From positions 4,224,001 to 4,288,000 of the forward strand of contig OY762897.2 in NCBI GenBank assembly GCA_963666515.2: 64,000 nucleotides of DNA. The letters run 5' to 3'. Position numbers and translations under genes: made by a program. Source of the stretch: Candidatus Binatia bacterium (GTDB lineage Bacteria; Desulfobacterota; Binatia; UBA9968; JAJDTQ01). Every line of letters begins with the position of its first letter. The first letter of the stretch is position 1. The notes under the pieces were generated by a model, which was given only the letters and a program-made list of their open reading frames with translations, was not told the origin of the DNA and made no database searches. This document shows, in pieces, positions 24,896 to 33,378 of this stretch.

Positions 24896-27800
24896 TCAGT
24901 TCCTGGCCTTGCGCATCCGCGCCAGCGTTTCCGCGGCCGGATGACGCGCGGCCCGGAGCGCGGAAGGGAAGTGGTCCTTGCGGCAGATCTCCGATACCTC
25001 GCAATAGCTGCAGTATTTGCCGGGCATGATGAAGAACTCCCCGTCGCGGATGCCCCGAAGGAACCGCGCCACCGCGTCGCGGATGCGTTCGCCGGAACGT
25101 TCCCGCATGGTCGGGGCGGAGAATTCGCAACGGGCCAGGGGGCCGTCGTCCCAGCGCCGCGCGAGGAAGTACAGGGCCGCTTCCACGGCGGTGTCCGGCG
25201 ATGCGCCCCTGGCGCAGGCGTGCTCGGCGGCCAGCAGCACGTAGAGGGGCAACTGCAGCTTCTGCCCGCGCACCGCCGCCAGCACCGGACGCATGTCCTC
25301 CGTCTGAGGGTTCCGGCCGGTCTTGTACTTGTAGTCGACGACCCGGTAGCGGCCGTCCCGGTCGTTGCAGTCCACGCGGTCCAGGCGGCCGTGCACCGGC
25401 AGGTCCCGGAGGTCTTCGGGCCAGTCCGCGTCGAGACGCGCGGTCAGCTCCATTTCGAGGTCCACGGGGCGGAAGCCCGATTGCGTCATCTCGTCCCGGT
25501 CCGCCCGGACCACCTCCTGCAGCATGCCGGCCAGCTCTTCCCGGGCCGTTTCCCAGGCCGCGGGGTAGCCGGTGGGACAGTGCTCTTCGAACGCGGACAG
25601 GACCTCGGCCGCGGCGCCGTCGAGCCACGCGCTCCAGCCGTCCCCCCAGGCGCGGTCGGCGTCCTGGTAGAACCGCTGCAGGATCTCGTGGCAGATCTGC
25701 CCCCATTCCAGGGCCTGGACCGGCTCCGCGGCCTCCGGCCGCTCCAGCCGTTCCAGCCGGAGCACGCGGCGGGCGTAGTACTGGAAGGGGCAGCGGCCGT
25801 AGGCCTCCAGCGTGGTGGGAGAGACGCCGTCCTCCAGGATCTTGTTCCACACCTCTCCGAGGGGACCGGTGACGCCGTCCAGCGCCCCCGGTGCTCCCGC
25901 GCCGTCCTCCAGCGCGCGGACCGCGGCGGCGCTCCTCCGGAAACTCTCCGAGGAGGCGCCGCTCATGCGCACCAGCGGGGTCGGGTCCCGTCCTCCCAGC
26001 GCCTGCCGCACCGCCAGCTCCTCCGGCAGGAGCCACCGGGGGTCGTCGAACGGCGGGACGCGTTGCTTGCCGAGAACGCTCTTGGGAATCGCGCCGGCGT
26101 CCATGCCGCGGCTTTGCCCGCGGGAGCCTGCGTCCACCTCGCGGAGGTACCAGGACGGGGCCAGCGGCCGGCCGGCCGCGTCCGAGCGCTGGTAGCTGCA
26201 ATGGAGGCGGTCGGTGACCGAGCCCGAGAGCAGCGCGAACAGCAGCCTCTCCTCGTCGTAGCCCGCCAGCTTCGAGGAGATCTTGCAGCCCAGGTCGGTC
26301 TCCAGCACGCGCCGCGCGTGGTCCCGCAGGAACGGGTCCTCGCGGATGGTGCGCGGGAACACGCCCTCGTTCATGCCCACGAGGAACAGCGCCCGGAAGG
26401 GGATGCCGCGCGCCGACCCGGCGTCCATGACCTGGACGCCGGCCGCCACCTCACGGGCCGGCGGCGCCGAGGCCCGCTCCAGGCTCCTGCGCAGGGCGGC
26501 GGCGAACGTCTCCAAAGTCACCGTCGGGGTGATCGCCTCCAGGGCCGCCAGCCCGTCGAAGGTCTCGTCGATGGCTTGCGCCACGCCCGCGGCGGCTTCG
26601 TCCGATCCGGGGTTGAGGAAGCGGTCGATGACCGCGCGCCAGCGGGCCGCCAGGTCCGACCACGTGCCCTTTTCCGGCAGCGCGCTCAGTTGCTCGTGCA
26701 GGGCGTTGACGACCTTCAGGAGCGCGTCGACCTGCCACGGCGGGATGCGCAGGGGCCGGCCTTCCTCGTCGTGCATGAGGCTCAGCCGGAGGCCCTTGTC
26801 GAGGTAGCGCTCCAGGCGGCGCCATTCGCCCATGCCGCGGGTGATGCGCGACGCACGGGTGGCGACGTCCCACAGCTCGGGCCTGGGGTCGGCGCCCGGC
26901 CCCAGGACGGCCCGGAAGTTGAAGTCGTGGGACGACACGAGGTCGATGATCCCGGCGCGCGGGTAGTCCCGGACCGGCAGGTCCAGCAGCGTCAGCACGG
27001 CGCGGACCCGGTTGAAGCGACGGAGAGACTCGCGGGCCGGGGTGTGGAACGGGATCCCGTGTTCGGGAAAGATCTCCTGGATCCACGGCAGGTAGGGTTC
27101 CAGCGAGCGCGCCACGACCCCCACGCCATGGAAGTCGAACCCTTCCTCCTCCACCAGCCGGAGCACGCTCTTGGCCACGGTGAGGACCTCGTCCCTGGGC
27201 CCGGCGCAACTGGTGATGTCGCGGCGCGGTGAGGGTGCGGTGACGGGTTTCGCTCCGTCGTGGAGCAGGTCCGCCACTTCGTCCGCGCCGGCGAGGCCAC
27301 GGAGGTAACGGTCGTAGAAGTCCTGGGCGAAAGACCAGTACGGACGGCCTTGGGCCAGGGGATAGAAGAGGGTCAGGGGGTGGTTGCCCGCGACCGCCCG
27401 AAAGAGTTCCATCTGGCTCTGGGTCAGGTCGTAGAAGCCGTAGTAGTATACGCGTTCGAACTGCCCGAGATAGGCCGAGCCCGGCGCGTGCCGCGCCACC
27501 GCCGCGTCGAGGTCCTGGTGGTCCTGCGCCCGCCACTCCGGGAAGCGGCGCCTCACCTCCCGGTACAACTCGAAGAGGTCGCCCAGCGCGTTCCCGTCCC
27601 GGTCGCCGAACAGCCCCTCCCGCAGGGCCTCCAGCGCGGTCTCGGGGTCCACCATGCCGTCCTTGAGGTCGCGCAGGCTTTGCCACAGCGCGGAGCAGGC
27701 GCCGTCGTCCTCCAGCATCCGGGCGAACCTGCCGCGGGCCGGGATCACGCGCTTCAGGGACTCTTCCATGAAGGTCTCGTCCCTCAACGTCGGCGCCGCC

Positions 27801-28036
27801 GGGCCGGCCATCTCGTGGAACAGGTTCAGGCTGAGCTGGAAGAACGTGAGGACGTGGAAATTCAGCAGGGGAAGGCCGTGCTCGTGCGCCAGCAGGACCT
27901 TGACGCGCCGGCGCAGCGTCTCCGAGGGCACTACCAGCAGCAGCGGGGCCAGCGGGTCATGCTCCCGCCGCTGCCGGACCTCTTCCGCCAGCGCGTCTTC
28001 CAGGTAGGGGTGGTAGGGACCCAGGACGATCTTCAT
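24896..28036 (-). CDS. addB: AddB-like inactive helicase with PD-(D/E)XK nuclease and Fe-S cysteines
   Basis: Motifs GMNEGVFP, YGRCPFQYY, GRLDRVD...VDYK and CSYCEVSEIC. Lies upstream of addA. Confidence 0.85.
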   Translation of the reverse strand: MKIVLGPYHPYLEDALAEEVRQRREHDPLAPLLLVVPSETLRRRVKVLLAHEHGLPLLNFHVLTFFQLSLNLFHEMAGPAAPTLRDETFMEESLKRVIPARGRFARMLEDDGACSALWQSLRDLKDGMVDPETALEALREGLFGDRDGNALGDLFELYREVRRRFPEWRAQDHQDLDAAVARHAPGSAYLGQFERVYYYGFYDLTQSQMELFRAVAGNHPLTLFYPLAQGRPYWSFAQDFYDRYLRGLAGADEVADLLHDGAKPVTAPSPRRDITSCAGPRDEVLTVAKSVLRLVEEEGFDFHGVGVVARSLEPYLPWIQEIFPEHGIPFHTPARESLRRFNRVRAVLTLLDLPVRDYPRAGIIDLVSSHDFNFRAVLGPGADPRPELWDVATRASRITRGMGEWRRLERYLDKGLRLSLMHDEEGRPLRIPPWQVDALLKVVNALHEQLSALPEKGTWSDLAARWRAVIDRFLNPGSDEAAAGVAQAIDETFDGLAALEAITPTVTLETFAAALRRSLERASAPPAREVAAGVQVMDAGSARGIPFRALFLVGMNEGVFPRTIREDPFLRDHARRVLETDLGCKISSKLAGYDEERLLFALLSGSVTDRLHCSYQRSDAAGRPLAPSWYLREVDAGSRGQSRGMDAGAIPKSVLGKQRVPPFDDPRWLLPEELAVRQALGGRDPTPLVRMSGASSESFRRSAAAVRALEDGAGAPGALDGVTGPLGEVWNKILEDGVSPTTLEAYGRCPFQYYARRVLRLERLERPEAAEPVQALEWGQICHEILQRFYQDADRAWGDGWSAWLDGAAAEVLSAFEEHCPTGYPAAWETAREELAGMLQEVVRADRDEMTQSGFRPVDLEMELTARLDADWPEDLRDLPVHGRLDRVDCNDRDGRYRVVDYKYKTGRNPQTEDMRPVLAAVRGQKLQLPLYVLLAAEHACARGASPDTAVEAALYFLARRWDDGPLARCEFSAPTMRERSGERIRDAVARFLRGIRDGEFFIMPGKYCSYCEVSEICRKDHFPSALRAARHPAAETLARMRKARN

Positions 28037-28896: not shown

Positions 28897-29334
28897 ATGA
28901 GCAGTCTGGCGAAGGACACGAGGGCGACGATGATTCCGGCGCTTCGGTACAGGGACGCAGCCAGGGCCATCGACTGGCTGTGCGAGGCGTTCGGCTTTGA
29001 GCGGCACCTGGTGGTGCCCGGCGAGGGCGGCGTCATCCTCCACGCCCAGCTCGTGTTCGGCAACGGCATGATGATGCTGGGCTCGGCCCGGGACGACGAC
29101 TACGCGGCGCTTCAGCAGCCCCTGCCGGACCCCGGCGGTCCGGTGTCGCAAAGCACCTACGTCATCGTCACCGACGTGGACGCACACCACGCCAGGGCGG
29201 CGGCCGTGGGCGCGGAGATCGTCATGGCCCCGGAGGATCAGGACTACGGGGGCCGGCTCTACTCCTGCCGGGACCCGGAAGGCAATCTCTGGAACTTCGG
29301 CAGCTACGACCCCTGGGACGACAACGGGCCATAG
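28897..29334 (+). CDS. VOC/glyoxalase family protein
   Basis: Motifs AIDWLCEAFGF, HAQL and YGGRLYSCRDPEGNLWNFG. Confidence 0.9.
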   Translation: MSSLAKDTRATMIPALRYRDAARAIDWLCEAFGFERHLVVPGEGGVILHAQLVFGNGMMMLGSARDDDYAALQQPLPDPGGPVSQSTYVIVTDVDAHHARAAAVGAEIVMAPEDQDYGGRLYSCRDPEGNLWNFGSYDPWDDNGP

Positions 29335-29434
29335 CGGGTAGGGTGTGTCGCGGCACGCTCCCGGTGACCTGCCCGCGCTTTCTTGGAGCGGATTTGCGCA
29401 GGATCACACGGCCGCGTAGACTTCGTCCTGCAAC

Positions 29435-29463
29435 TTGACATACCGCCGGGCGTTTCCTACAAC
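29435..29463 (+). promoter_or_regulatory. Putative sigma70 promoter of ferredoxin gene
   Basis: TTGACA-17 nt-TACAAC, 6 nt before ATG 29470. No RBS. Confidence 0.55.
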
Positions 29464-29469
29464 CCCGCC

Positions 29470-29754
29470 ATGCCTAGAGTCACTTTCATGCCGTTGGGGC
29501 AGAGCTTTGAGGTCGAGGACGGCACCACCATCCTGGTGGCGGCCATACGCAACGGCGTCAAGCTGCGCCACGACTGCACCGAGGCCATCTGCGGCACCGA
29601 CAAGGTGAAGATCCTGTCCGGCGAGAACAACCTGAGCCCCGTGGACGACAACGAGGAGTTGACGCTGTCCATGCTCGAATCGGATGCCGCCGACCGCCTG
29701 GGATGCGTGGCCAAGGTGCTCGGCGACGTGATCGTGGAGATACCTTCCGAGTGA
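29470..29754 (+). CDS. 2Fe-2S ferredoxin (Fer2), variant cluster motif
   Basis: Sequence GTTILVAA, HDCTEAICGTD, RLGC. 94 aa. Confidence 0.8.
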   Translation: MPRVTFMPLGQSFEVEDGTTILVAAIRNGVKLRHDCTEAICGTDKVKILSGENNLSPVDDNEELTLSMLESDAADRLGCVAKVLGDVIVEIPSE

Positions 29755-29759
29755 TGGAT

Positions 29760-30211
29760 GCGGCTGACTAGCAGAGAAACTCGTCCCCGACGACGCTGAT
29801 CTCGGAGGAAGGTCCTACCCTAATGAATCAGACACCCCGGCTCATAAAGAGATGGGGTCGTGTACGGACGAATTTGTGTGCAAAACCCAAATGGGCGGGC
29901 TGAACATCGTGTTGCAGAAGCCGAGACGGGTGCTTCTCAGAAAGCACATGGGCCTAATTCGAGCCATCTTGGAGCGAGTCTCGTGCTGCTCCAGCGTTTG
30001 GTTTGTATTTTCTCTCTTCATGAGATGAGATGTTAAGCATTTCAAGGAGTTAGGGGTCTCACACCGTTGGTTTGTGAGCCCCTTATGCATGCCTCCGTTT
30101 AAGGATCTCCCCGACGTGCCGAAGCTATTAAAATGTGGCGACACAGAGATAGCGATCTGGTATAAGGGGCCATCTGGCGAGATCCGATAGGGTTCCGGAA
30201 GGAATTCAAAA
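29760..30211 (+). ncRNA. Candidate structured non-coding leader (possible AvcI-like RNA antitoxin)
   Basis: About 450 nt without a credible long ORF, directly upstream of the dCTP deaminase. Several stems, e.g. AGGGGTCTCACA 30052-30063 / TGTGAGCCCCT 30073-30083. Positional inference only. Confidence 0.3.
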
Positions 30212-31822
30212 GTGAGTGTTGCGTCAACAAATGTCCGGGCGAAGCAAAGTACTTCAAGACGCTCATCTCAGTCAGCAGTCAACGATTTGGCGGCAAACGA
30301 GTTGATTTTTGCTGTCGTGGGCGCAGCAGGGTCCGGTACAAGCGAGATTGCCAAAGCATTGGAGGCTCTACTCCCACAGCACGGCTACAGTCCTACGATG
30401 CTAAAGGCGCGAGTCGTGATTGAGTCGTCGATGGGCAATGCCCGGCAATCCTATCCCCACGACACAAGACTTGCCAAGAGCGAGGCATTACAGAATGCCG
30501 GAGATTCCCTACGGGAGACGACCGGCGATAACGCTGCCGTCGCTGTAGGACTTGTTAGAGAGATACGCGCCAAACGTGCTCAATATCAGGGAACCGAGTT
30601 GGAGCCCAACAAACCGGTTGAGCCCGACGGTACCAAACGGGCCTATATTCTCGATTCCATCCGCCATCCTGCCGAAGTCGCCCTATTGCGTCGGGTGTAC
30701 CAACAGGCGTTCTGCCTAATAGGTGTTTTCTGCCATGAGGATGAGCGGTTTCACCGTCTAAGCGCTGACAAATATTCGGATGCGAGTGCCAACGACATTC
30801 GTCGTTTCATGCGGCGTGATGAGAATGCTCCAGAAGTACATGGTCAGAAAGTGTCTGATGCCTTTCACCTTTCTGACTATTTCGTGGATAACACGCGTCC
30901 TCGATTCGTTAGGGTTGGCAACGTTGATACGCCAAATCAGGACTGGGACGTTTCGGATCAACTTGGCCGCCTCGTCGATATACTCACCCGCAATCGTCTG
31001 ATCCGCCCAAGGCCAAATGAAACAGGGATGTTCCATGCTCACGGTGCCCGAATGCAGAGCAGTTGCTTGTCGAGGCAGGTCGGTGCAGCGTTGTTAGATG
31101 AACGCGGAGCGGTTGTAGCAACCGGTACAAACGAGGTCCCCCGTGCCGGCGGGGGCGTGTACGGTGGGGTGCTTCTACCAGTTGGGAGTGCTGATCCCGA
31201 ACCGGATCAGGATTTCCGTTGTTTCGTTTACAACAAGTATTGCACGAATACTCGGCAACAAAATGAGATCATTGATGAGCTTCTTGGAGTTATCGGTGAA
31301 ACTACGGGAGGCAAACCACCCGATGAATTGAAGACGCGAATAAAAAGCAGCCGAATTGGACAGATTTTGGAATTCAGCCGTGCCGTTCACGCTGAAATGG
31401 ACGCGTTGTTGTCGGCAGCAAGAAACGGCATCAAAACTGTGGGTACGCGGCTTTTCGTAACGACGTTTCCCTGCCATAGCTGTGCCCGCCATATCGTGAC
31501 CGCTGGGGTCGAAGAAGTGCAGTACATTGAACCGTACCTGAAGAGCCAAGCCATTCCTCTACATGGCGACGCGATTGTGACCGACCCGAAGAGTTGGAAG
31601 CCGCCTTCAATTCCCGAAACTCCACAAGTCTGTCCCAATGTGTTGTTCCGCGCGTTCATTGGGGTGGCGCCGCGGCTCTACCGTCGAGCTTTCATGAAGG
31701 ACGGAGAACTGAAGGACGCCGACACTGGTGACATGAACCTGCCCGTGTCGAGTGACTACACGACATCGCCGACGCTAAGGGTGAGCTATGCGGAGGTCGA
31801 AGCGCGAATCTCGGCATTATAG
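30212..31822 (+). CDS. Anti-phage dCTP/dCMP deaminase (P-loop kinase-like domain + deaminase; Dcd/AvcD type)
   Basis: N-terminal FAVVGAAGSGTS, ILDSIRHPAEV and HGQKVSDAFHLSDYF. Deaminase motifs SSCLSRQVGA, GTNEVP, VHAEMDA and TFPCHSCARHI. GGAAGGA RBS. Lower GC than flanks. Confidence 0.9.
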   Translation: MSVASTNVRAKQSTSRRSSQSAVNDLAANELIFAVVGAAGSGTSEIAKALEALLPQHGYSPTMLKARVVIESSMGNARQSYPHDTRLAKSEALQNAGDSLRETTGDNAAVAVGLVREIRAKRAQYQGTELEPNKPVEPDGTKRAYILDSIRHPAEVALLRRVYQQAFCLIGVFCHEDERFHRLSADKYSDASANDIRRFMRRDENAPEVHGQKVSDAFHLSDYFVDNTRPRFVRVGNVDTPNQDWDVSDQLGRLVDILTRNRLIRPRPNETGMFHAHGARMQSSCLSRQVGAALLDERGAVVATGTNEVPRAGGGVYGGVLLPVGSADPEPDQDFRCFVYNKYCTNTRQQNEIIDELLGVIGETTGGKPPDELKTRIKSSRIGQILEFSRAVHAEMDALLSAARNGIKTVGTRLFVTTFPCHSCARHIVTAGVEEVQYIEPYLKSQAIPLHGDAIVTDPKSWKPPSIPETPQVCPNVLFRAFIGVAPRLYRRAFMKDGELKDADTGDMNLPVSSDYTTSPTLRVSYAEVEARISAL

Positions 31823-31837
31823 CCGCGAGAAATACTG

Positions 31838-32368
31838 ATGAGTGCCAGGGAGCCAACGTCATATCTTCGTCTGGTAGTTCGACGACCACAGGTTGGTTCG
31901 GCTGAATCGCCCGAAGTCGAAAATAGACCGAAGCAACTGTCGTTGTGGTACCCTGAACCTTCGGCAATTTTCTTGCTGAGCGTCGCGTGGATGGGTCGCG
32001 AAGAATTCACGGCGGTCCTCGGAAGATGCCGACCACAGTGGATCATCGACATTCGAGCTGTTCCAAGATTCGATAGAATTGCAGCGTCCCGCAGTGAGGC
32101 GTTCAGACTTTTTGAAAAACTCGGCGCGACATATGTGGACCTTTTCGGGCGGCTAGGTATCAAGTCATATGATTCGGCAGAATCTAATCCAATCAATTGG
32201 GGTGGAGCGGTCGTTGACCTGCTAAGGAACACGGGTCGACAGGGACCGTACGTATTTCTGTTGGACAATGAAAAGCTGACAGCCCGAACACGACTGATTC
32301 TGCCCGGGGTCGTGGGAGAACTTGTAGGGGACGGGCTACGAATTGAGACTATTGCTCATGTAAAGTGA
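31838..32368 (+). CDS. Hypothetical protein, DUF488-like core, linked to the dCTP deaminase
   Basis: 15 bp after the deaminase stop, with the same low-GC composition. EEFTAVL...IIDIRAVP...GATYVDL..LG resembles the DUF488 pattern. Confidence 0.6.
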   Translation: MSAREPTSYLRLVVRRPQVGSAESPEVENRPKQLSLWYPEPSAIFLLSVAWMGREEFTAVLGRCRPQWIIDIRAVPRFDRIAASRSEAFRLFEKLGATYVDLFGRLGIKSYDSAESNPINWGGAVVDLLRNTGRQGPYVFLLDNEKLTARTRLILPGVVGELVGDGLRIETIAHVK

Positions 32369-32523
32369 GTGGTGGAGGGTATTTGAAGATGCCGCGAGAC
32401 GGAATCATGGCGTATTCGCCAAGTGTCGCGACTTGCACTCTTTTCCACACTCTAGCAGTGTGAGGGGTGGCCTTTTAGCGAGATGGTTGTGAATCGTTAT
32501 AGAGGTATAAGCTGGAGGCCCCA

Positions 32524-33378
32524 ATGAGTAGAGTCAAGGAAGTGCTCGACCGGCAGGGAACCCTGGTCATGCCGGGAGTGTACGACGCCCTGAGCGCCCG
32601 CATCGCCGAGCGCGCGGGCTTCGACGTCATATTCACCACCGGCTACGGCATCTCGGCGACTATGCTGGGCGAGCCGGATTTCGGCATCCTCACGCAGACC
32701 GAGATGCTGAGCACCATCTACCGCATCTGCGGCGCGGTGCCGACGCCGGTCATCGTGGACTCGGACACCGGCTACGGCAACGCGGTGAACGTGGTCCGCA
32801 CCGTCAACGAGCTGATGCGGGCCGGGGCCGCGGGCATGTTCCTGGAGGACCAGGTGTGGCCCAAGCGCTGCGGGCACATGCGGGGCAAGCAGGTGGTGCC
32901 GCTGGACGAGTATCTCAAGAAGCTCAACGCCGCGGTGGCGGCGAAGGACGGCGGCGATCTCTTCATCGTGGCCCGCACCGACGCGCGCCAGGCCTTGGGC
33001 CTCGACGAGGCCATCCGGCGCGGCATCGCCTTCAAGGAGAACGGCGCCGACGCCGTGTTCATCGAAGCGCCGGAAAGCCGCGACGAGATGCGGGAGATCG
33101 CCCGCAACGTGCCGGGGCCGCTGGTGGCCAACATGATCGAGCGCGGCGTCACCCCGCTGATGACGCCGGCGGAGTTGGGAGAGCTGGGTTTCGCGTTGAT
33201 CGTGTGGCCGGTGGGTCCGCTCTACTCAGCGGCCCAGGCGCTCAAGAACTACTACGCCAACCTCCGGGAGATGGGCACCGCGGAGGCGCTCATGGACCGG
33301 CTGCTGCCGTTCGACGAATTCCACCAGATCGTGGGGCTGGAGGAGAAGTACGCTCTGGACGAGAAGTACCGGACGTGA
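32524..33378 (+). CDS. Isocitrate lyase/PEP mutase family enzyme (methylisocitrate lyase-like)
   Basis: Motifs PGVYDALSA, VDSDTGYG, EDQVWPKRCGH and ARTDA. Confidence 0.9.
   Translation: MSRVKEVLDRQGTLVMPGVYDALSARIAERAGFDVIFTTGYGISATMLGEPDFGILTQTEMLSTIYRICGAVPTPVIVDSDTGYGNAVNVVRTVNELMRAGAAGMFLEDQVWPKRCGHMRGKQVVPLDEYLKKLNAAVAAKDGGDLFIVARTDARQALGLDEAIRRGIAFKENGADAVFIEAPESRDEMREIARNVPGPLVANMIERGVTPLMTPAELGELGFALIVWPVGPLYSAAQALKNYYANLREMGTAEALMDRLLPFDEFHQIVGLEEKYALDEKYRT

Follow-up and report, generated by a model that had tools for sequence, protein, structure and literature searches.

How is an anti-phage deoxycytidine triphosphate (dCTP) deaminase kept silent in an uninfected cell, and does it always act as the only protein of its system? 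These deaminases are regarded as single-gene systems or as a protein paired with an RNA antitoxin, and the way in which they are silenced and triggered is known only for the RNA case in Vibrio. The question is raised by a 64,000-nucleotide stretch of the genome of a Candidatus Binatia bacterium (assembly GCA_963666515.2, contig OY762897.2, positions 4,224,001 to 4,288,000 of the forward strand), hereafter the window, in which a compact insert carries a deaminase gene (gene A) followed by a second gene (gene B) encoding a protein of 176 amino acids. We find that B is a true and specific partner, strictly linked with one clade of these deaminases, and that its most likely role is to regulate the enzyme as a subunit.

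Gene A (30212..31822, + strand; 536 amino acids, GTG start codon with GGAAGGA 8 nt upstream) is by sequence clearly a member of the Dcd/AvcD family of anti-phage dCTP deaminases. The open reading frame (ORF) encodes an N-terminal P-loop kinase-like domain, reaching to about residue 265, and a C-terminal zinc deaminase domain. It matches the NCBIfam model NF041025 with 422.4 bits (cut-off 400; residues 30-501 against profile positions 1-437 of 437), the dCTPase model in a hidden Markov model scan of PADLOC-DB 2.0.0 (6.5e-148) and Pfam dCMP_cyt_deam_1 (5e-14), whereas the AAA_18 match is weak (0.0011). A preliminary description of the locus had identified the large gene as a two-domain anti-phage dCTP deaminase and had pointed to three motifs in it. 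These matches bear out the identification, and the motifs GAAGSGTS (residues 37-44), HAE (393-395) and PCHSC (420-424) are all present, with G37, G40, G42, H393, A394, E395, P420, C421 and C424 invariant in 15 relatives. The ratio of nonsynonymous to synonymous substitution rates (dN/dS) is 0.11 against locus L003, the copy that another genome of the genus (G007) carries at the same site with 85% identity. A PDB sequence search found no solved full-length relative, only small dCMP deaminases matching residues 379-446. Phage defence by dCTP depletion is established for the family, in which both the kinase-like and the deaminase domain are required for defence according to the accessible text of Tal et al. 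(10.1101/2021.04.26.441389), and by analogy gene A probably has this function.

Gene B (31838..32368, + strand) was characterized from its ORF, its homologues, an AlphaFold (AF2) model and its linkage to A. It has no match among Pfam, NCBIfam or PADLOC models. It is nevertheless a real gene under purifying selection, since dN/dS against L003 is only 0.094 and the protein has 317 cluster representatives at E<=0.001 in a library of 1.8 billion proteins. Seventeen close homologues, at 47-79% identity, share 47 invariant columns. The two genes are alike in their low guanine-plus-cytosine (GC) content as well as in the selection acting on them.

A deaminase homologue stands directly upstream of B in all eight genome loci, six of which are complete while L009 ends at a contig edge and L010 retains the two genes in decayed form only, and likewise in 12 of 12 metagenome loci, several of which end at contig edges and one of which (L034) is a fusion; these 20 fetched loci are fairly close relatives, with 31-82% identity to B. 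In this remnant (L010:5453-6261) the surviving ORFs cover no more than the C-terminal 170 residues of the deaminase and the N-terminal 99 of B. Among 16 pairs having both ORFs, 12 show a 4-nt overlap of the A stop codon with the B start codon. Other genes found next to the pair encode a tyrosine integrase (L006), a phage tail tube protein (L004) and a SocA/Panacea protein (L005).

As a control for bias, 401 alphaproteobacterial genomes were searched with NF041025, independently of B. Matches at E<=1e-30 occurred in 21 genomes, 16 of them above the cut-off. A B-profile match lies directly downstream in 6 of the 17 near-full-length deaminase loci, two of which were seeds, so that the unbiased share is 4 of 15 near-full-length loci, or 3 of 14 when loci above the cut-off are counted. 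The reverse search, with the B profile against the same 401 genomes, gave six matches, all directly after those six deaminases and none elsewhere. The preliminary description had held that homologues of B lying apart from the deaminase in other genomes would speak against a partnership; all 20 fetched loci and all six matches in the 401 genomes are linked to one.

The linkage follows the phylogeny of the deaminase. In a maximum-likelihood tree of 28 deaminases, rooted at the midpoint only, the 17 B-linked rows are separated from the 11 B-less ones across a branch with 99/94 support (the tree omits near-duplicates, the truncated L025, L027, L029-L032, L009 and L010, and the partial L052-L056). 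The core of the B-linked clade carries an insertion at A residues 231-245 that is absent in B-less relatives. In the loop at A residues 37-44, B-linked deaminases keep GxxGxG(T/S), whereas 8 of the 11 B-less ones carry a different, G.vGtdL-like loop. The window deaminase nests among proteobacterial copies, which fits transfer into a high-GC host. Four of the 11 B-less alphaproteobacterial deaminases (L038, L044, L035 and L040) are followed by a same-strand low-GC ORF of 72-91 amino acids; these ORFs resemble neither B nor one another in any obvious way, and may be other partners or chance ORFs.

A direct contact between the two proteins is predicted by structural modelling. Complexes computed with alignments for both chains scored ipSAE 0.72, 0.73 and 0.72 in three runs, against 0.00 for the best control; of the solved complexes 58 of 80 attained a mark of 0.72, and of the mismatched pairs 2 of 110. 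The runs share at least 98% of their contacts, and the predicted local distance difference test value (pLDDT) of the partner is 74. The modelled interface comprises A residues 48-56, 231-253 and 262, in the kinase-like domain near the domain boundary, and B residues 50, 74-80, 84-86, 89, 99-101, 104-105, 109-111 and 143-144. It involves the most conserved residues of B together with the clade-specific insertion of A. PDB sequence searches found no solved related complex, so that the score does not stem from a memorized structure. The model suggests that B binds the kinase-like domain of A.

What kind of protein is B? Residues 1-38, which contain the motifs HLRLV and QLS.(W/P)YP, form a disordered tail, and residues 39-176 a predicted alpha/beta domain resembling DUF488, in which D71, R73, P76, R77, D79, R85, Y99, D101 and D143 are conserved. 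In the AF2 model, built from an 18-row alignment (mean pLDDT 77, core 86-94), the conserved polar residues sit at the C-terminal ends of beta strands. Foldseek found nothing in the PDB at E<=0.001, and no PDB sequence matched. The best hit of a wide fold search was the N-domain of CbiF (Z 8.2, root-mean-square deviation 3.4, 107 residues aligned), followed at Z 5-7 by a mixture of methyltransferase, signal recognition particle GTPase and Cys-phosphatase folds; these Z values are within the background range of the tool, and no fold was assigned.

The label "DUF488-like", given to B in the preliminary description, proved partly apt. In its favour, hhalign aligned 145 members of the B family with nine DUF488 proteins from relatives at 84.4% probability (E 7.1e-6), over 72 columns of the N-terminal half (B 48-119 against DUF488 8-80), which is moderate, not decisive support. 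When a global alignment is forced, B 41-176 and DUF488 1-149 run collinearly, and the nearest named neighbours of B in a protein-language-model Atlas are DUF488 clusters (0.94, 0.81 and 0.77). Against the label, PF04343 matched none of the 18 close B homologues, which had no Pfam match even at E<=10, and a search of the window genome with it hit another locus and not gene B. In addition, the CxE...CHR stretch of the nine compared DUF488 proteins is absent from B, where the aligned place reads FL(F/L)D(N/D)E, with no Cys/His pair. On this mixed evidence B appears to be a remote and divergent DUF488-like domain and not a family member. The literature searched gives no function for DUF488, which is reported near prophages and defence islands in the accessible part of one study (10.1101/2024.05.24.595836). 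No relative of B was found among viral contigs (profile search) or among phage and plasmid records (tblastn). A B-type partner of a deaminase is undescribed in the literature found; subscription articles and bioRxiv supplements, which were beyond reach, could mention one.

Further clues come from proteins in which B is fused to other domains. Long members of the family join an N-terminal B domain to TIR-APAZ (PADLOC Aga_TIR-PNTD1-PNTD2, E down to 6e-142), the partner protein in short prokaryotic Argonaute systems with TIR-APAZ (SPARTA; 10.1101/2025.04.08.647717, available in part). Other fusions, seen in P0080 and P0159, are to GNAT plus PIN domains (878 amino acids) and to DUF2188 (387 amino acids, PADLOC candidate PDC-S16). 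The fused B domains retain the HLRLV tail and the DxR..P.FD and YxD residues. On one metagenome contig (L034:1566-7569), a gene of the integrase family, a deaminase 48% identical to A, a B+TIR-APAZ gene and a short prokaryotic Argonaute (pAgo) gene follow one another in this order; the B+TIR-APAZ protein has 678 amino acids and starts 6 nt after the deaminase. The locus gives the impression of SPARTA combined with nucleotide depletion in three genes. Deaminase, B+TIR-APAZ and short pAgo also follow in this order on Rhizobium gallicum plasmid pRGM101a (NZ_CP092345.1; L077:4366-9389). There the deaminase is 50-54% identical and lies in two frames of the record, annotated as two CDS, 'hypothetical protein' and 'deaminase'; the B domain is recognized by the profile at E 1.5e-34, and the TIR start given in the record falls inside it. 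In a third locus (L057:4719-11864, genome G410) a free A-B pair and a TIR-APAZ/pAgo pair converge tail to tail across 72 nt, and a large serine recombinase adjoins the two pairs.

Both B+TIR-APAZ fusions with context thus lie directly after a deaminase of the B-linked clade and before a short pAgo. A short-Argonaute neighbour was seen in 3 of 26 distinct B-bearing loci, most of which have short flanks. The window itself holds neither TIR-APAZ nor pAgo, as judged by tblastn with the L057 proteins, and the literature searched describes neither TIR-APAZ proteins that begin with a B-type domain nor loci of this kind in which a deaminase gene comes first. The fusion of B to TIR-APAZ after the same deaminase clade indicates that B is a module linking the deaminase to a controlling partner. 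Tentatively, B may be a dedicated docking and control domain of this clade, the free form acting as a switch and the TIR-APAZ-fused form placing the deaminase under a guide-loaded short Argonaute; we consider this a possibility worth stating, although the chances are on the whole against it. If it were true, loci with deaminase, B+TIR-APAZ and pAgo would be Argonaute-triggered systems that deplete nicotinamide adenine dinucleotide (NAD+) and dCTP together, and a nucleotide-depletion effector would be wired to a nucleic-acid sensor, a wiring of which no description was found.

The explanation that best accommodates these observations, and which we hold to be probable though by no means secure, is that the two genes form an operon and that B serves A as a regulatory subunit, acting on the kinase-like domain of the enzyme, preferably as a labile inhibitor. 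Upon infection, A would convert dCTP to deoxyuridine nucleotides and so starve phage DNA synthesis. B would be made from the mRNA of A, mostly by translational coupling, and would bind the N-terminal kinase-like domain via its conserved DxR..PRxD / YxD surface, keeping A silent in uninfected cells as a protein counterpart of the AvcI RNA antitoxin. The disordered tail of 38 residues would make B short-lived, and phage shut-off of host expression would then release A. Which way the control runs, what triggers it and whether B is labile are conjectural here: provided that the binding is real, we prefer an inhibitory B in uninfected cells, with the chances about evenly balanced. A labile inhibitor is favoured because related deaminases are toxic and are restrained for as long as host transcription continues, according to the accessible text on the Vibrio system (PMC10511110), because B would be made in step with A, and because its tail is long, disordered and conserved.

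Several points weigh against this explanation. In classical protein toxin-antitoxin pairs the toxin gene seldom comes first, and an antitoxin without a DNA-binding domain, as B would be, is unusual. Relatives lacking B provide defence on their own, as far as the available text of Tal et al. goes (10.1101/2021.04.26.441389), which implies that B is unneeded for catalysis as such. The contact between A and B is predicted, its score is a measure of model confidence obtained with self-made alignments, and the results fit an inhibitor and an activator alike. D71, R73, P76 and Y99 are common to DUF488 proteins unrelated to deaminases, so that the conserved residues of B may mark an intrinsic ligand or catalytic site and not an interface evolved towards A. 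The fusions of B to GNAT+PIN and to DUF2188 could point to a deaminase-independent role. Finally, the tree is subject to ascertainment, since searches with B supplied 13 of its 17 B-linked rows and the unbiased sample only four.

The alternative that survives best is that B is an infection sensor or activator, which would bind a phage product, a nucleotide or a nucleic-acid cue and switch on A via the kinase-like domain. The conserved polar residues do lie at the usual ligand site of an alpha/beta fold and are retained in DUF488 proteins, the domain is modular in its TIR-APAZ, GNAT+PIN and DUF2188 fusions, as many defence sensor domains are, and the complex model would support binding to A under this explanation too. 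In that model, however, A fills the conserved pocket; B matched no ligand- or nucleic-acid-binding family, and in the fusions the Argonaute already supplies a sensor. We therefore regard a sensing role as rather unlikely, but as the alternative to be taken most seriously.

An RNA has also to be considered, as the preliminary description had envisaged a three-part variant composed of RNA, deaminase and accessory protein. In such a system an AvcI-like RNA from the leader would inhibit the deaminase and B would be an additional accessory. The leader, whose left part contains the insertion junction, is a region of 457 nt without credible ORF (29755..30211), and a long non-coding region precedes A in L003 as well, while other loci have upstream gaps of roughly 100-500 nt. 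Related deaminases are inhibited by AvcI-type RNAs (PMC10511110, accessible part), and the leader folds better than its shuffles (z -2.55). The opposite strand, however, folds similarly (z -2.31). An Rfam search over 29000-33000 gave zero matches at E<=1, and the leader resembles none of 14 other A-B upstream regions, L003 being its sole likeness. To L003 it is 75% identical overall, with many frame-breaking indels and large length differences even between these two closest relatives; since the indels are not multiples of three, the leader is non-coding, and two small ORFs in it (58 amino acids on the + strand and 100 on the - strand) were dropped as genes.

The only strongly conserved part of the leader is a block of 72 nt that is 90% identical to L003 (30101..30172, + strand), and it looks like a promoter: GCGACA (30138-30143) is followed after a 17-nt spacer by TGgTATAAG (30158-30166). 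A scan for promoter and terminator consensus sequences found sites no more numerous than in shuffles, and it missed this one because the -10 hexamer ends in G. It is plausible from the sequence that the block holds an extended -10 promoter with a predicted mRNA start near 30173-30175, about 40 nt before the GTG codon, which would leave a 5' untranslated region of only about that length. Given the lack of an Rfam match, conservation in L003 alone and the similar folding of both strands, RNA as a third component is not supported, although an AvcI-like RNA may yet exist. Of the proposed three-part variant, the accessory protein thus stands by virtue of its linkage and the RNA does not, and we consider the three-part system improbable.

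A second enzyme or effector that works after the deaminase and whose target is not A but, for example, deoxyuridine nucleotides or DNA containing uracil, would account for the invariant Asp, Arg and Tyr residues of B, which are typical of an active site. The distant kinship with DUF488, whose reported surroundings were mentioned above, and the weak fold likeness to Cys-phosphatase-like proteins and methyltransferase N-domains (Z 6-8) are compatible with this. Nevertheless, the CxE...CHR motif of DUF488 is missing from B, no enzyme family matches it and the conserved site faces A in the complex model. Moreover, TIR-APAZ already brings an effector to the fusions, so that a connector fits better. 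A separate enzymatic role is accordingly quite improbable in our judgement. That B is an unrelated neighbour sharing the island by chance has only the general clustering of defence genes in its favour, is already contradicted by the complete linkage in the 20 fetched and six unbiased cases, the overlapping stop and start codons, the supported branch that groups the B-linked deaminases and the like GC content and selection of the two genes, and is almost certainly wrong.

How did the pair come to lie here? The low-GC block (29755-32520, about 2.7 kb, about 0.52 GC against about 0.68) is a horizontally acquired insert. In 300-nt windows GC is 0.50-0.57 from about 29750 to 32450 and 0.62-0.73 in the flanks, in agreement with the sharp shift in composition between the flanking genes noted earlier; the preliminary description of the content as about 450 nt of non-coding DNA and two co-oriented genes 15 bp apart was likewise accurate, since the ORFs leave a 457-nt leader and a 15-nt spacer between A and B. 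On the left lies the 2Fe-2S ferredoxin gene of the host (29383..29754, + strand; Pfam Fer2 1.3e-10), which is kept in 17 of 18 other genomes of the genus, and on the right a host gene of the phosphoenolpyruvate (PEP) mutase/isocitrate lyase family (32524..33378, + strand; PEP_mutase 5.6e-53), both outside the insert. These two genes are adjacent, with a gap of 34-172 nt, in 8 of 11 same-genus loci examined, which places insertion beyond chance. Of the other three loci, that of G007 carries the insert and two have no PEP-mutase match within the fetched stretch. The deaminase is present in 2 of 19 genomes of the genus, namely that of the window (G000) and G007. The shift in GC, this sparse distribution and the empty sites together support the horizontal acquisition of the block.

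When the locus is aligned with the empty sites in three other genomes of the genus, the left junction falls near 29766-29769 and the right one near 32460-32470. Within 32369..32523 the insert runs out in 3' non-coding sequence, and past the right junction the original spacer between the ferredoxin and PEP-mutase genes resumes (GGCCTTTT...). A direct repeat of 7 nt, CTAGCAG, occurs at both ends of the insert on the + strand (left 29768..29774, right 32452-32458); it was read from the sequence and the empty-site alignment, as the automated repeat search, with a minimum length of 11, did not list it, and may stem from duplication of the target, mark the end of an element or be fortuitous. No recombinase is encoded within the insert. 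In another genome of the genus (G002:C1:472001-474816) the ferredoxin region occurs twice, at a distance of about 2.5 kb, which could be another insert at the same site. Upstream of the insert, on the - strand (24896-28036), lies an ORF of 1046 amino acids with a Cys-rich nuclease-like tail; it is conserved in L003 and by eye looks like an AddB-type helicase-nuclease subunit.

Taken in this context, one entire clade of anti-phage deaminases has an obligatory protein partner that no library names and that is a candidate control subunit. This suggests that single-gene defence annotation misses half of the system in the B-linked clade. The TIR-APAZ fusions point to nucleotide depletion and Argonaute immunity being physically connected, and the pairing gives a DUF488-like domain its first functional context.

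Comparison with known systems shows where the locus conforms and where it departs. With the anti-phage dCTP deaminase Dcd (Tal et al., 10.1101/2021.04.26.441389; NF041025; PADLOC dCTPase) it shares the two-domain protein, the intact motifs and a patchy, mobile distribution. In the accessible text of that work, however, Dcd is described as a single protein acting alone, and PADLOC-DB 2.0.0 has a model of the deaminase by itself, whereas here a second gene is coupled to it throughout the clade. AvcID of Vibrio cholerae, a type III toxin-antitoxin system (PMC10511110, available in part), has a homologous deaminase as its toxin, and we propose that the logic of a labile inhibitor lost upon phage shut-off of host transcription is shared; its inhibitor is a small RNA, while here no conserved RNA was found and the deaminase has a protein partner. 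If the pair were a protein (type II-like) toxin-antitoxin system, B would bind A directly, as the complex model predicts (0.72 against 0.00 for the best control), and would be labile and neutralize a toxin that is harmful alone; the 38-residue disordered tail is no more than a hint of lability.

DUF488 (PF04343; YeaO-type) has in common with B a collinear order of secondary structures and, in the N-terminal half, a strand, a helix, DxRxxP..R and Y...LG. It differs in that its Pfam model misses B, that B is without CxE...CHR, and that B has its own N-terminal HLRLV tail and its tie to deaminases. SPARTA (PADLOC Aga_TIR-PNTD1-PNTD2 and pAgo_I) differs from the window, which is without TIR-APAZ or pAgo, these being found only in the related loci L034, L057 and L077; the point of contact is B itself, which in L034 and pRGM101a forms the N-terminal domain of the TIR-APAZ protein before the short pAgo. 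Measured against the libraries and literature searched, the deaminase is thus the known part of this system, and the partner B, its clade-wide coupling to the deaminase and the short-Argonaute link are the new one.

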